Positions 31,274 through 49,211 of a DNA stretch of 64,000 nt are shown one piece after another. The first letter of the stretch is position 1. Every line of letters begins with the position of its first letter. Under the pieces are notes generated by a model, which saw nothing but the letters and a program-made list of their open reading frames with translations, searched no databases and was not told the origin of the DNA. The DNA is from Pseudomonas phage phi9_PA9: sequence record PQ093904.1, one strand, 5' to 3'. Position numbers and translations under genes: made by a program.

Positions 31274-32257
31274 ATGATGTCTAAAGTAAAAACTCGAATT
31301 TACTTTTGTGGTGGTGCTGGTTTCCGTATTGGTGAACTATTCCATGGTTATCATGAGGATGTTTGCTACATTGATACCAGTGTACAGAATAAACACAAAC
31401 ACAATACTGACGATAATACGATCATTATTGAAGCGGATACCAAGCTAGCCGACCAGACTGCACGTAAACGTGCTATCGGCATGGGTAAAGATCGTAAGGC
31501 AGCCGCAGAACTAATCTCTGCACATATTCCTGCCATTGCTCATCATTTCCCAGCAGGAGATACTAACATCGTAGTGTACTCAATGGGTGGTGCATCTGGT
31601 TCAACTATTGGCCCTTCTCTTGTTAGTCATCTACAACAACAAGGCGAAGTAGTTGTAAGTGTGGTCATTGGATCTTACGACAGTGATATTAGTCTTCGAA
31701 ATAGCAGTGGTAGCCTTAAGACTTTTGAAGGGGTTTCCTCTGTTAGTAAAGTTCCGATGATTATTAACTATCATGAGAATGTTGAAGGTGTACCGCAGTC
31801 AATGGTAAACCAAAACATTCTTGAAGTACTAAATGCACTAGTAATTCTATTTAATCAAGAACACCAAAGTCTTGATCTAATGGATATCACTAACTGGGCA
31901 CACTTCCATAAACACCATGATGTACCTGTACAGACTGTGCAATTACACGTGTGTTTCGATCGTCAAGAAGCTCAGGCTATTCTGGATCCAATTTCTATTG
32001 CTTCATTATACACTGATCCTGATCGTGACGTATCTATTAGTACAGTTCTAACTCGTACTACTGGTTATGCTGATCCTGAAAAATATGATTTCGATCAAAT
32101 GCATTTTGTGATCAATGGTCTATCTATTGAAGATATTCGTAAACGATTAGAAGAACGTCGTGAAATGATGAATCGAGCCAAAGCTAATATGCGTAAGCGT
32201 CAGTCTACTTTAGATGTGGATGACCAAGCAACTAGTAGTGGTCTTGTATTCGATTAA
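31274..32257 (+). CDS. phuZ: PhuZ-like phage tubulin
   Basis: 327 aa. N-terminal IYFCGGAGFRIG nucleotide-binding loop. Tubulin/FtsZ G-box-like MGGASGSTIGP. Acidic C-terminal tail DVDDQATSSGLVFD, as in PhuZ. Confidence 0.6.
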   Translation: MMSKVKTRIYFCGGAGFRIGELFHGYHEDVCYIDTSVQNKHKHNTDDNTIIIEADTKLADQTARKRAIGMGKDRKAAAELISAHIPAIAHHFPAGDTNIVVYSMGGASGSTIGPSLVSHLQQQGEVVVSVVIGSYDSDISLRNSSGSLKTFEGVSSVSKVPMIINYHENVEGVPQSMVNQNILEVLNALVILFNQEHQSLDLMDITNWAHFHKHHDVPVQTVQLHVCFDRQEAQAILDPISIASLYTDPDRDVSISTVLTRTTGYADPEKYDFDQMHFVINGLSIEDIRKRLEERREMMNRAKANMRKRQSTLDVDDQATSSGLVFD

Positions 32258-32264
32258 CTTATAA

Positions 32265-32296
32265 AGGAGCCCTTCGGGGCTCCTTTTATTTTTTTT
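32265..32296 (+). terminator. intrinsic terminator after phuZ
   Basis: AGGAGCCC-TTCG-GGGCTCCT followed by TTTATTTTTTTT. Confidence 0.65.
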
Positions 32297-32311
32297 GTAA
32301 CGAGGTGTAAT

Positions 32312-32794
32312 ATGAAACCAGTAAATACAGTTACTTATATTCCTTTGCAGGTAGCTGAATCATTCCATTCCCCTAGAAATATGATCTGTCTACTGGAGAA
32401 AGGTAGAGTCCCTCTTTATTCAGCAAAACATCTTAATTATTTACGTATCAATGTTGACGATATTGAGGATTATATTGATTCTTCTTATGATTTATTTGAT
32501 CATCGCCATGCACAACGTATTATTTCTTTCTGTGAAGCTCTTGGTAAGGATCAACACCTATTCGTACACTGTGAGGCAGGTATTAGCCGATCGGCTGCTG
32601 TAGCTAAGTTTCTGTGCGATAAAATGGGATTCATTCATGTACCGTACAATCCATCTTTATTTAATTTTGATGGTTACAATGGTCACATTTATGGAGTTCT
32701 ATGTAACGCTAAAGCAGGGAAGCTTTATTATGATGATAGAGCTGATGGTATTTTTATGGGTAAGGTAAATCAGAATTTTGCAGATATTAAATAA
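32312..32794 (+). CDS. dual-specificity (Cys-based) protein phosphatase-like
   Basis: 160 aa with the canonical active-site P-loop VHCEAGISRSAAV (HC-X5-R-S). Confidence 0.65.
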   Translation: MKPVNTVTYIPLQVAESFHSPRNMICLLEKGRVPLYSAKHLNYLRINVDDIEDYIDSSYDLFDHRHAQRIISFCEALGKDQHLFVHCEAGISRSAAVAKFLCDKMGFIHVPYNPSLFNFDGYNGHIYGVLCNAKAGKLYYDDRADGIFMGKVNQNFADIK

Positions 32795-32833
32795 CTAGCG
32801 ATAATTAATAATCTGTATATTAGGAGATAACCG

Positions 32834-33307
32834 ATGGCAAAGAACACTGCTAAAAAGCTCGACGAGCAAATGGCAGCTGAACTTGATCTGACGTTATCTC
32901 CGTTTACTATGGTTCTGAAACACGTAGTTCGTCTCCCCAACATAGTTGAGGGATTTATCTTTGTAATGGTTAAGGATGGAATTATTAGCTATGACCGGGT
33001 AGACAAATGGGCTGAAGTAAACGGGATGCGTTTGCGAGTTCCTCGTTTCAAATCGCATTCGGTTATTGAGAAGCGGTTAAACGATAAGCTGTATAGACGT
33101 TGGTATGTTTGGGGGAATGGTATTTTATATCCATTGCAAACATCCAAGGTTGAAGATTTAAAAGATAACTTCTATTTCAAGATTGACAGTAACCCCCACT
33201 GTTGTACCATCCACATTCCAAATATTGATGCAGATAGTATACGAAATAATACATTACCATTTTTCGAAAGAGTCCACCCTGGATGGGGTGTTATATTAAC
33301 TGATTGA
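32834..33307 (+). CDS. hypothetical protein
   Basis: 157 aa; SD TAGGAGATAACCG-ATG. Confidence 0.5.
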   Translation: MAKNTAKKLDEQMAAELDLTLSPFTMVLKHVVRLPNIVEGFIFVMVKDGIISYDRVDKWAEVNGMRLRVPRFKSHSVIEKRLNDKLYRRWYVWGNGILYPLQTSKVEDLKDNFYFKIDSNPHCCTIHIPNIDADSIRNNTLPFFERVHPGWGVILTD

Positions 33308-46870: not shown

Positions 46871-47201
46871 TAGGAAATACCTCGGTAGATAGGGATGTTA
46901 AATAAGTAACATCCCGATTCTAATACTGCGACCCTGGTTCACTTCGGTGATAACGGTTAGGAGTAGGTTCTGTGAAGTAATCGACTAGTGAACTTAGTCT
47001 AGGTCGACCTATCACTACACGAGGATGATGGATCACTTAACCGAAAGGAGTTACTCAAAAGGTGACGTGTGATCAAAACTACAATGGATGGTAAAAGGTC
47101 CTAGTGCCAGAGCGCTACAGAGAAGAGCGGAGGTTAAGCTTTGTAGACGACGCTAGGATCGGGCCAGGCTCCGTTGGTGGTCCATTGTAAAAACTGATAT
47201 A
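46871..47201 (+). ncRNA. GC-rich, hairpin-dense untranslated region (candidate structured RNA / 3' UTR element)
   Basis: ~330 nt with no ORF of 60 aa or more in any frame. GC content is well above the neighbouring genes. It holds several perfect hairpins: GGGATGTT/AACATCCC, a TCAC-UUCG-GTGA tetraloop, the GGTCGACC palindrome and CGCT...AGCG. It ends at terminator 47202-47240. Confidence 0.35.
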
Positions 47202-47240
47202 GCGGCTCCTTCGGGGGCCGCTTATATCTCCTTTTTTTGT
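47202..47240 (+). terminator. intrinsic terminator (GCGGCTCC-TTCG-GGGGCCGC + T-run)
   Basis: 8-bp GC stem with a UUCG loop, followed by TTATATCTCCTTTTTTT. Confidence 0.6.
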
Positions 47241-47263
47241 TAATCGATAAATAGGAGTTTGGT

Positions 47264-48508
47264 ATGGGTCTTTATGCCAAAGTTGTTGATCATGATGAAG
47301 TACATGATCAATTTACGGGTAAACGTATTTATGCCAATGATTACAATACGAGTAACTCAGATGAGAAAGAAGAATTTGATAGGCATTTCTATTCTCATTT
47401 CCAAGATTCAGAAGCAATTGAAAGTAGCGTAAGTTGTGATTGTCGAGCAATCGAAGACGCACATAAACTCGGAGTAATCTGTGATATTTGTAATACTCCA
47501 GTTGTCAATACTTCTAGCCGCCCTATCGAACCATCAATGTGGGTTCGTACACCAAAACATGTACGTAGTCTAATTAACCCACGTTTAATCATTATGCTAA
47601 CTGGATATCTAGTAACTAAAGAATTCGATTTCTTAGCATATCTAACCGATACTTCTTATCGATACGATGTAGAATCCATTGCCTCTAAAGAAACACGCAG
47701 GAAAGTAGATAGACTACTGCATCGAGGATTTGAAAGAGGATTAAATCACTTCATTGATAACTTCAATGAGATCTTCCAATTCCTACTAGATGCAAATATT
47801 ATCTCTAATAATAAATCCGAATTCGCTCAATTCATTGCTCAGAATAAAGATAAGCTATTCCCTAAATATTTACCAGTTCCTTCTAAACTCTGTTTCGTAG
47901 CAGAATCAACTACATCTGGTACTTACTTAGATAAACCAATTGAAGCAGCAATTGACGCTACCTTAACCTTCGCTAGTATTGATGCATCGTCTGTACCACT
48001 TAGCCCTATTAAAGCTCAGAATAGGACTATGCGAGGACTAAGACTATATGGCCAGTTCTACGAGATCTACGCAAAATCACGAATTGCTCAAAAGCCTGGT
48101 CTTGCTCGGCGTCACATGTTTGGTGCTCGTCTCAACGCTACGGCGCGTGCAGTAATCACTTCTATTAGTGACCCGCATGATTATGATGAATTACATATCC
48201 CTTGGGGAGTAGGTTGTCAATTATTAAAGTATCATCTAACTAACAAGTTAAAAGCTAAGTTTAACATGACAACTCGTGAAGCATTCTCATTTGTATATGA
48301 GAATGTACTTCAATATAACCAAATCATCGCTGATCTATTTAAAGAGTTAATTGCAGAGGCTGCACCATATAAAGGAATGGGTTGCACTTTTCACCGAAAC
48401 CCGACCCTTCAACGTGGATCTACTCAACAATTCTTTATTACTAAAGTAAAAGATGACATTAATGATAATTCAATCAGCATGTCAGTATTATGCCTTAAAG
48501 CGCCTAAT
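47264..48508 (+). CDS. multisubunit RNA polymerase beta-prime, N-terminal subunit, exon 1
   Basis: Zn-finger CDC...CDIC. GARLNATARAVI resembles the RFRQNLLGKRVDYSGRSVI motif. The ORF track stops at 48523 (...KAPNRTSN*). The conserved NADFDGD motif resumes in frame at 48993. Confidence 0.8.
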
Positions 48509-48992
48509 CGGACAAGTAACTAACCAAATAAGGTAAAAACAATGGAACAAAACGGAGTAGTGTCCGTCTTTGATCCGGCTTCATTTAAAATTGAATATGA
48601 AGTGCTTGATAAATACCTTATTAAGTTAATCAAGTCTAGTTCCCCCAGTGAGTAATCATTGGGATGAGTTCTCTCTAATTGCTGGGATATCCTGTTAAAC
48701 TAATCTACCACTGCGAGTCGAAAGACAAAGCCAAGGTTTGAAAAAGATTAGGTAGGGCCAATCAGCAGCCAAGCTCCGTAACATTCCATTTAGGAATAGG
48801 AGAAGGTTCAACGACTATTACGGTATCAGGTGCACCGGTCCTAGAAATAGGATGTAGGGTCAAGTGACTCGAAATGGGAGACACCCCACTCCGAAAGGAA
48901 GGGTGAAGATATAGTCTGGTCTGCATGGTAACATGCAGCAGGTGGTAATTATACTACCGGGTATGGATTAACGACCCATACTGAACATAACG
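48509..48992 (+). ncRNA. group I self-splicing intron (no homing endonuclease gene)
   Basis: Canonical core elements: P TAATTGCTGGGA (48676-48687), Q AATCAGCAGC (48760-48769), R GTTCAACGACTAT (48806-48818) and S AAGATATAGTC (48906-48916). The 5' splice site follows a T (48508). G 48992 precedes exon 2 as omega-G. Only a 37-aa internal ORF (48542-48655). Boundaries are good to a few nt. Confidence 0.8.
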
Positions 48993-49211
48993 GCGGATTT
49001 TGACGGCGATCAATTGAATCTTACATTAATGCCTGATGTGTATTTAACTAAAGCAACTGAACGCATTGCTCCACATACATGGGTTCTATCTATTGATGAA
49101 CCACATGAAATCTCAGGTAACCTTGAATTACAGGGTCCTGTTGTAGAAACAATTATTAACTGGGCACATGAGAAGTATTTACCACCATTAGAAGAGTGGT
49201 TGAAGTCGTAA
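48993..49211 (+). CDS. RNA polymerase beta-prime N-terminal subunit, exon 2
   Basis: Reads ADFDGDQLNLTLMPDV... (catalytic Mg-binding aspartate triad). Joining 48508 to 48993 gives ...VLCLKAPN-ADFDGDQL, colinear with bacterial LVCAAYNADFDGDQM. Stop at 49209-49211. Confidence 0.8.
   Translation, partial: ADFDGDQLNLTLMPDVYLTKATERIAPHTWVLSIDEPHEISGNLELQGPVVETIINWAHEKYLPPLEEWLKS

Follow-up and report, generated by a model that had tools for sequence, protein, structure and literature searches.

Does the interval 31274..49211 of Pseudomonas phage phi9_PA9 carry the genes with which a jumbo phage builds its nucleus, and is the 626-aa protein encoded there at 44990..46870 the protein of the nuclear shell or that of the head? 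The interval belongs to a 64,000-nt stretch of this phage (PQ093904.1), which is referred to as the window throughout, and a preliminary description made from its letters had read the interval as a phage-nucleus gene set, with a PhuZ tubulin, a chimallin-like shell protein and a split multisubunit RNA polymerase (RNAP) next to each other. According to our analysis, the window almost certainly represents a partial genome of a Phikzvirus, a jumbo phage of the Chimalliviridae infecting Pseudomonas aeruginosa, and the flagged interval is its block of early genes for setting up and operating the nucleus. The 626-aa protein is best identified as chimallin, not as a capsid protein, while a conserved non-coding spacer directly behind its gene is the part of the locus for which a new reading is proposed.

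Megablast queries covering 44000-49500, 31000-49500 and 44900-64000 were compared with 50,697 phage records. The whole query was matched by some 45 phiKZ-group phages of Pseudomonas aeruginosa, which are collinear with it but for a small number of indels, and the DNA identity to phages of the phiKZ species was 96.5-97.9% over 18.5-19 kb, with kmuB (best, 97.9%), Bobae, PA_ZH1 and SL2 as the closest isolates. The window shares gene order and content with gp39-gp73 of phiKZ (NC_004629), and the annotated records of Bobae and of phiKZ (RefSeq) label the genes of the interval "tubulin PhuZ", "nuclear shell protein ChmA", "divergent family B DNA polymerase" and "RNA polymerase beta subunit". We therefore assign the window, on sequence grounds, to a new isolate of the known species Phikzvirus phiKZ, and the call of a nucleus-forming jumbo phage is borne out by the DNA identities. 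The interval is a run of mostly plus-strand open reading frames (ORFs) and AT-rich, with an overall GC of 38%; every ORF of the preliminary description was present at its coordinates, and the interval end at 49211 is the stop codon of the second exon of gp55. Functions of nucleus genes were transferred from the phiKZ, 201phi2-1 and PhiPA3 literature on the basis of 99-100% protein identity (PMC9365700, PMC8287921, bioRxiv 2024.03.27.586873, PMC8244752); what was tested here are the sequence identities. The shell protein and its upstream neighbor are the following.

44990..46870, plus strand: chimallin/ChmA (gp54), major phage-nucleus shell protein (PF25677; 620 of 626 residues identical to phiKZ gp54)
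39919..42114, plus strand: divergent family B DNA polymerase, gp50 (Pfam PF20286 divDNApol, 1035 bits)

PF25677, the Phikzvirus chimallin family, matched the 626-aa protein with 1117.2 bits over residues 1-626 and profile positions 1-627 of 627; it was the sole Pfam match, and no capsid family was found on the protein. Its identity is 99% with phiKZ gp54 and reaches 100% with the ChmA proteins of Churi and Bobae. A phmmer comparison with the solved chimallins returned those of phiPA3 (8FNE, E 4.6e-164), 201phi2-1 (7SQQ, E 2.3e-135, residues 14-625) and Goslar (7SQT, E 1.4e-17).

The alternative that had been put forward is a major head protein with the HK97 fold. Only size, high expression signals and low-complexity termini favor it, along with the feature "putative structural head protein", which some older GenBank records carry beneath the regional match. 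Against it stand the full-length match to PF25677, the near identity to phiKZ gp54 and the homology to solved chimallins, whose core consists of two domains, a novel alpha/beta domain and a GNAT-like fold, not HK97 (PMC9365700). This architecture of a two-domain core with terminal tethering segments explains the low-complexity termini and excludes an HK97 capsid fold; moreover, the major capsid protein of phiKZ is PHIKZ120, which lies outside the window (PMC8244752). The head protein was therefore rejected, and we regard its probability as negligible.

Expression-type features of the chimallin gene, on which the first reading had been built, were found in part as described. The ORF has a GC content of 0.473 and a GC content at third codon positions (GC3) of 0.406, both the highest among 38 genes measured from 28.8 to 62.8 kb, where the GC3 of all other genes ranged from 0.19 to 0.38, and its effective codon number of 38.5 is among the lowest in the window. 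The codon bias is thus real, but calling it extreme was an overstatement. These values fit a very high expression in a GC-rich host. The termini described as disordered are of low complexity, with many A/T/Q/P in residues 1-45 and many G/A/S/M/Y in residues 585-626.

The position of the gene points in the same direction. A conserved chimallin locus has been reported to have the DNA polymerase upstream and the beta' subunit of the non-virion RNAP (nvRNAP) downstream (bioRxiv 2024.03.27.586873), and here gp50 lies upstream at 39919..42114 and gp55 follows downstream from 47264. The nuclear shell protein of the phiKZ group has been termed the major phage nucleus protein (bioRxiv 2024.03.27.586873). 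The chimallins of 201phi2-1 (gp105; 7SQQ) and phiPA3 (PhuN, gp53; 8FNE) are homologous to the protein of the window over nearly the full length, including the terminal segments that tie the protomers together, but they are only about 42-49% identical to it and belong to phages of other genera, in the case of 201phi2-1 also with another host. Judged from the 99-100% identity to shell proteins of the phiKZ group, chimallin of this phage would self-assemble into a square lattice of protein around the replicating DNA of the phage.

The second element of the gene set is the tubulin.

31274..32257, plus strand: PhuZ (phiKZ gp39), phage tubulin (326 of 327 residues identical to PHIKZ039 in PDB 3ZBP/3ZBQ)

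The ORF encodes 327 aa, with the G-box GGASGST at residues 105-111 and a C-terminal tail reading ...STLDVDDQATSSGLVFD, whose end ...LDVDDQATSSGLVFD is present and identical to phiKZ; the features from which a tubulin/FtsZ-like protein with an acidic tail had been called are therefore in place, and tubulin-fold similarity was found. From its stop, it is 12,733 nt downstream to the start of the 626-aa ORF, close to the 13 kb given before. Pfam PF22334 (TubZ_C_2) matched residues 200-285 with 128.2 bits against a cut-off of 27 (E 1.7e-37), and the next-best PDB matches after phiKZ PhuZ were the 201phi2-1 PhuZ structures 3J5V and 3R4V.

Since PhuZ and TubZ are sister families, since the matching C-terminal model carries the name TubZ_C_2 and since certain records label the tubulin gene "TubZ chain A" or "CetZ-like", the protein could be taken for a TubZ-type tubulin of plasmid or prophage DNA segregation, unrelated to the phage nucleus. 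We consider this highly improbable: the protein differs in a single residue from phiKZ PhuZ itself, neither a TubR or tubC partner nor centromere repeats are annotated or were seen beside the tubulin gene, and the gene is located in a jumbo phage genome that encodes chimallin. The 327-aa protein is thus best identified as PhuZ, which would polymerise into GTP-dependent filaments that center and rotate the nuclear compartment.

For the RNAP genes, the preliminary description had placed a beta-prime N-fragment directly downstream of the 626-aa ORF, as in phiKZ gp54-gp55, and a beta C-fragment at 61619. Both were found, with a refinement: both genes are interrupted by group I introns.

47264..48508, plus strand: nvRNAP beta'-N gp55 exon 1, 415 codons (416 of 419 ORF residues align to PDB 7OGP chain A)
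48509..48992, plus strand: gp55 group I intron, 484 nt (RF00028, 80.4 bits at 48618..48938)
48993..49211, plus strand: gp55 exon 2, 72 codons and stop, corresponding to phiKZ gp56.1 (spliced product matches 7OGP chain A)
56432..58015, plus strand: gp68, sigma-like fifth nvRNAP subunit (collinear with PHIKZ068 and the Bobae "non-virion RNAP subunit")
61619..62812, plus strand: nvRNAP beta-like gp71-73 exon 1 (residues 6-398 against 7OGP chain C 1-393, 904 bits)
62813..63125, plus strand: gp71-73 group I intron, 313 nt (RF00028, 81.1 bits at 62845..63071)
63126..64000, plus strand: gp71-73 exon 2, running off the window end (open frame; collinear with phiKZ gp73)

The gp55 ORF 47264..48523 follows 7OGP chain A as far as ...LCLKAPN and then diverges. 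The U of AAU (48508) is the last base of exon 1 and a G (48992) that of the intron, and the join gives ...KAPN|ADFDGDQLN, NADFDGD being recreated solely after intron removal. DFDGD is the universal catalytic motif of beta' and belongs to its double-psi beta-barrel, and its position in gp55 agrees with that of the catalytic motif in the phiKZ nvRNAP beta' (PMC8287921). The spliced product of 487 aa matched 7OGP chain A over 1-486 with 1121 bits and, beyond that, the beta' of AR9 and RPB1 homologues. The second gene behaves alike: the ORF 61619..62818 matched 7OGP chain C, the solved chain beginning at Met6 (position 61634), and the boundaries 62812|62813 and 63125|63126 restore FHGG|KGVICK. Because the gp71-73 homologue of PS119XW is without an intron and its two blastn segments abut exactly at this junction, these boundaries are independently confirmed. 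The beta-like chain is the one that carries the second barrel, with conserved lysines and an HG.KG motif. The assignment of gp71-73 to the C-terminal half of beta leans in part on general knowledge of bacterial beta and is also that of the literature (PMC8287921, PMC7598289), where gp68 is described as the fifth, sigma-like subunit (PMC8287921).

Both introns exceed the RF00028 gathering score of 50 bits in Rfam, and both share an exon end at U, an intron end at G and a removal that restores an uninterrupted conserved ORF; judged from the conserved motifs, they would have to be spliced out to restore NADFDGD in beta' and HGGKGV in beta. No homing-endonuclease ORF was found in the gp55 intron, where the longest ORF has at most 54 codons, and no HNH gene in the 313 nt of the gp71-73 intron, whereas the phiKZ introns at the same positions carry the HNH genes gp56 (in gp55) and gp72 (in gp71-73). 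A second gp55 intron, further upstream, occurs in Bobae and the isolates nearest to it and is absent from this phage. Three introns of the phiKZ group are paralogues with the common 3' end TGAACAYAACG (window 48509..48992 and 62813..63125; L001 20404..20653). The td and nrdB introns of T4 likewise fit RF00028, and their P7/P9 core is 72-79% identical to that of the window introns; unlike them, the window introns interrupt RNA polymerase genes and are without a homing endonuclease in this isolate.

In comparison with the phiKZ nvRNAP (PDB 7OGP/7OGR: gp55, gp68, gp71-73, gp74 and gp123), chain A is nearly identical to spliced gp55 and chain C to gp71 exon 1, and the DFDGD motif is in the same place, while gp74 and gp123 lie outside the window and gp71-73 is cut by its end. 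The products of gp55, gp68 and gp71-73, together with gp74 and gp123 from elsewhere in the genome, would form the nvRNAP, which is expected to serve middle and late genes within the nucleus.

Taken with the genes for nuclear import, gp68 and gp50, the nucleus gene set of the window is larger than the one listed in the preliminary description.

38883..39266, plus strand: Imp4 (gp48), 126 of 127 residues identical to phiKZ gp48
50431..51042, plus strand: Imp3 (gp59), 201 of 203 residues identical to phiKZ gp59
55584..56324, plus strand: Imp6 (gp67), 245 of 246 residues identical to phiKZ gp67
58032..59705, plus strand: Imp1 (gp69), 552 of 557 residues identical to phiKZ gp69

Imp1 has been described as the cargo-licensing nuclear import factor, Imp3 as a core nuclear import factor, Imp6 as a direct binding partner of Imp1 and Imp4 as needed for the import of TopA into the nucleus (bioRxiv 10.1101/2024.03.27.586873). 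By their near identity to the phiKZ proteins, these four factors would license protein import through the shell.

Three observations weigh against individual parts of this picture. PF00091 (Tubulin) reached only 30.5 bits on PhuZ (E 5.4e-7), slightly below the Pfam cut-off of 33; such a score seems typical for divergent phage tubulins and is outweighed by the near identity to a solved PhuZ. None of the 50,697 phage records was identical to the window. As for the introns, ONT-cappable-seq of phiKZ did not detect spliced intron reads (PMC10914365); to be set against this, the solved recombinant nvRNAP, expressed in Escherichia coli, was built with fused gp55/56.1 and gp71-73, the sequences of which match the junctions given above. 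Nothing found here contradicts the main identification. The identities of PhuZ, chimallin and the split RNAP are correct but were already known, and they are published biology throughout.

Some further observations concern the gene content of the species. A 62-aa ORF at 49352..49540 is 93% identical to phiKZ gp58.1; in the window this mini-ORF lies between gp55 exon 2 and gp57, with the same placement in Bobae, whereas its phiKZ counterpart is found between gp58 and gp59, a cassette of about 350 nt thus occupying two different positions inside one species. Another ORF, of 142 aa (35239..35667) and located between gp42 and gp43, has an annotation in Bobae but none in the phiKZ RefSeq record, the DNA being collinear; it is probably a gene overlooked in the phiKZ reference annotation. 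ARAGORN detected neither tRNA nor tmRNA in the window.

The AT-rich promoters invoked in the preliminary description stood in an extended form of the motif.

44902..44917, plus strand: phiKZ-type early (virion RNAP) promoter motif of chimallin, its TATATTAC 73 nt before the ATG
56401..56416, plus strand: early promoter motif ahead of gp68 (extended motif TTRARNNNTATATTAC)
28736, plus strand: early promoter motif upstream of gp36 (extended motif)

The exact consensus TATATTAC reportedly goes back to Ceyssens and colleagues (J Virol, 2014). As a bare 8-mer it is not enriched in the window, with 10 matches against 6.4 expected and at least 10 in 11 of 100 shuffles, so that this part of the claim did not hold. 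Seven of the 10 matches, however, have an A-run and TTRAR ahead at a fixed distance, and the extended motif TTRARNNNTATATTAC occurs at seven sites in the window against 0.02 expected, all on the plus strand. The extended motif agrees with the AT-rich early-promoter element centered near -10 (PMC7598289), and PHIKZ054 has been reported to have a primary transcription start site (TSS) with the early motif and a secondary one with a middle motif (PMC8244752). The virion RNA polymerase, injected with the phage DNA's entry, would transcribe chimallin from this kind of early promoter.

What lies between the shell gene and the polymerase gene that follows it? The chimallin stop and the gp55 start are separated by 393 nt (46871..47263) with a GC of 0.45 against 0.38 for the window, and no ORF of more than 38 codons was found within this spacer.

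46880..47195, plus strand: conserved non-coding element, candidate structured RNA in the chimallin 3' untranslated region (UTR) (conservation, covariation)
47196..47239, plus strand: intrinsic terminator, GC stem with UUCG loop followed by a T-run (read from sequence)

Some 360 nt of the spacer align at 86.5-87% identity with the Pawinskivirus phages PS119XW, PA1C, BRkr, phiLBG22 and HPP-Temi (86.5% over 364 nt for PS119XW), while the chimallin protein of Pawinskivirus phages is 48.6% identical, its gene yielding only an 84-nt blastn match, and gp55 exon 1 is 66% identical. Across 40 kb of synteny with PS119XW, where coding DNA is 64-70% identical, no other island of high identity comes near the spacer in size. 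The terminator is strong, invariant across Phikzvirus, Pawinskivirus and PhiPA3, and marks the end of the chimallin transcription unit shortly before gp55. In PhiPA3 the spacer is diverged and has an insertion of about 130 nt, and the spacer of Noxifer measures only 84 nt. A scan for spacer homologues with the pattern CACTTAACCN{1,2}AAAGGNGTNNCTC gave only PhiPA3 in IMG/VR; four metagenome contigs that matched the pattern and nothing else were taken as chance.

A second non-coding island was noticed at 30475..30592, in the spacer between the Dip gene gp37 and gp38, which is 81.7% identical to PS119XW over 120 nt, again against 64-70% for coding DNA, and which contains a G7/C7 hairpin, GTGGGGGGGACCCTTTGGGGGGGTCCCAT.

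Structural evidence comes from an alignment of 12 spacer sequences, for which RNAalifold gave 107 pairs in 16 helices with 99.8% of the cells paired. Compensatory double changes were seen in seven pairs from seven different helices, compared with zero or one when the 3' partners were slid by 1-3 columns; the alignment comprises few lineages, so these compensatory changes represent few events. At least nine invariant G-U pairs of the model fit only the plus strand. Within it, the three-way junction of 47031..47074, built of an outer stem, UUAA, a short hairpin, A and a longer hairpin, folds alike on its own in the window, HPP-Temi, 201phi2-1 and Phabio with differing helix sequences, and PhiPA3, 201phi2-1 and Phabio have a recognisable core of the spacer. 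A covariance model of the 3' domain (R1) was strong on the phiKZ-type spacers and phiHQ and weak on PhiPA3 (E 0.018) and Phabio (E 0.06); by itself, this model does not prove a wide distribution of the spacer RNA. No Rfam family matched the window spacer at E<=1, and the spacers of six related phages gave only chance-level matches (E>=0.74), well under the gathering scores. The stretch GTTCACTTCGGTG... resembles the type I-F CRISPR repeat of P. aeruginosa, but only the first seven bases agree and the hairpin differs, and this candidate was dropped.

The spacer of phiHQ (L005 493..1028) is chimeric, its 5' half being Psa21-like and its 3' half a phiKZ-type domain; the blocks of the Psa21 spacer (L020 3256..3690) matched by the 5' half are AAAGGTCTGACG, TGACCTGCCAAAGTC, AAAACTTACGGTGATGTAA and ATAGGTAAACCGTATTA. 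Judged from this chimera, the chimallin-gp55 locus seems to have two or more RNA modules that can be exchanged.

Could the conservation have arisen without selection on an RNA structure, by a recent recombination between Phikzvirus and Pawinskivirus in co-infected cells or through a site acting at the DNA level? The window, SL2 and PA7 share a patch with Pawinskivirus (A3 columns ~231-250 and 283-294) in which phiKZ, PA02 and LC differ, and such patches shared by some isolates of both genera indicate that recombination acts at the spacer, as the phiHQ chimera also would. The single-sequence minimum free energy fold lends a structured RNA no support, its z-score of -0.94 being unremarkable. On the other hand, the compensatory changes in seven helices with nearly all cells paired, the G-U pairs compatible with the plus strand alone and the three-way junction, whose shape is kept in 201phi2-1 and Phabio although their helix sequences differ, speak for an RNA constraint, and recombination and RNA constraint can both hold. 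We consider it unlikely that recombination or a DNA-level site accounts for the conservation, and the spacer is probably a genuine conserved structured RNA. The full proposal, that 46871..47263 encodes an undescribed conserved multi-helix 3'-UTR RNA with a UUAA three-way junction, ending in the chimallin terminator, is put forward tentatively.

The element does not appear in the texts of the phiKZ and 201phi2-1 transcriptome papers (including PMC8244752). The non-coding RNA candidates of phiKZ (3'UTR_PHIKZ298, 5'UTR_p40 and the small RNA upstream of gp182) are, like the spacer, structured, bounded by a terminator and located on an abundant mRNA. In contrast to them, the spacer is longer (about 320 against 70-200 nt), lies at another locus, is unmentioned in those studies and is conserved in sequence far beyond its flanking genes. 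As to its most likely roles, it may stabilise the very abundant chimallin mRNA, or it may set the terminator read-through into the nvRNAP beta' gene. Both proposals derive from the position of the element and from the extended-motif scan, which found no early-promoter motif of gp55's own in the spacer.

The identification of the nucleus genes itself adds little, as phiKZ gp39, gp54 and gp55 are the type examples of their families and the species already has more than 40 sequenced isolates; it mainly confirms that reasoning from synteny and composition works on raw sequence. If the reading of the spacer is true, its RNA would be a candidate new RNA family and would offer a new handle on the amounts of shell protein versus RNA polymerase very early in infection.

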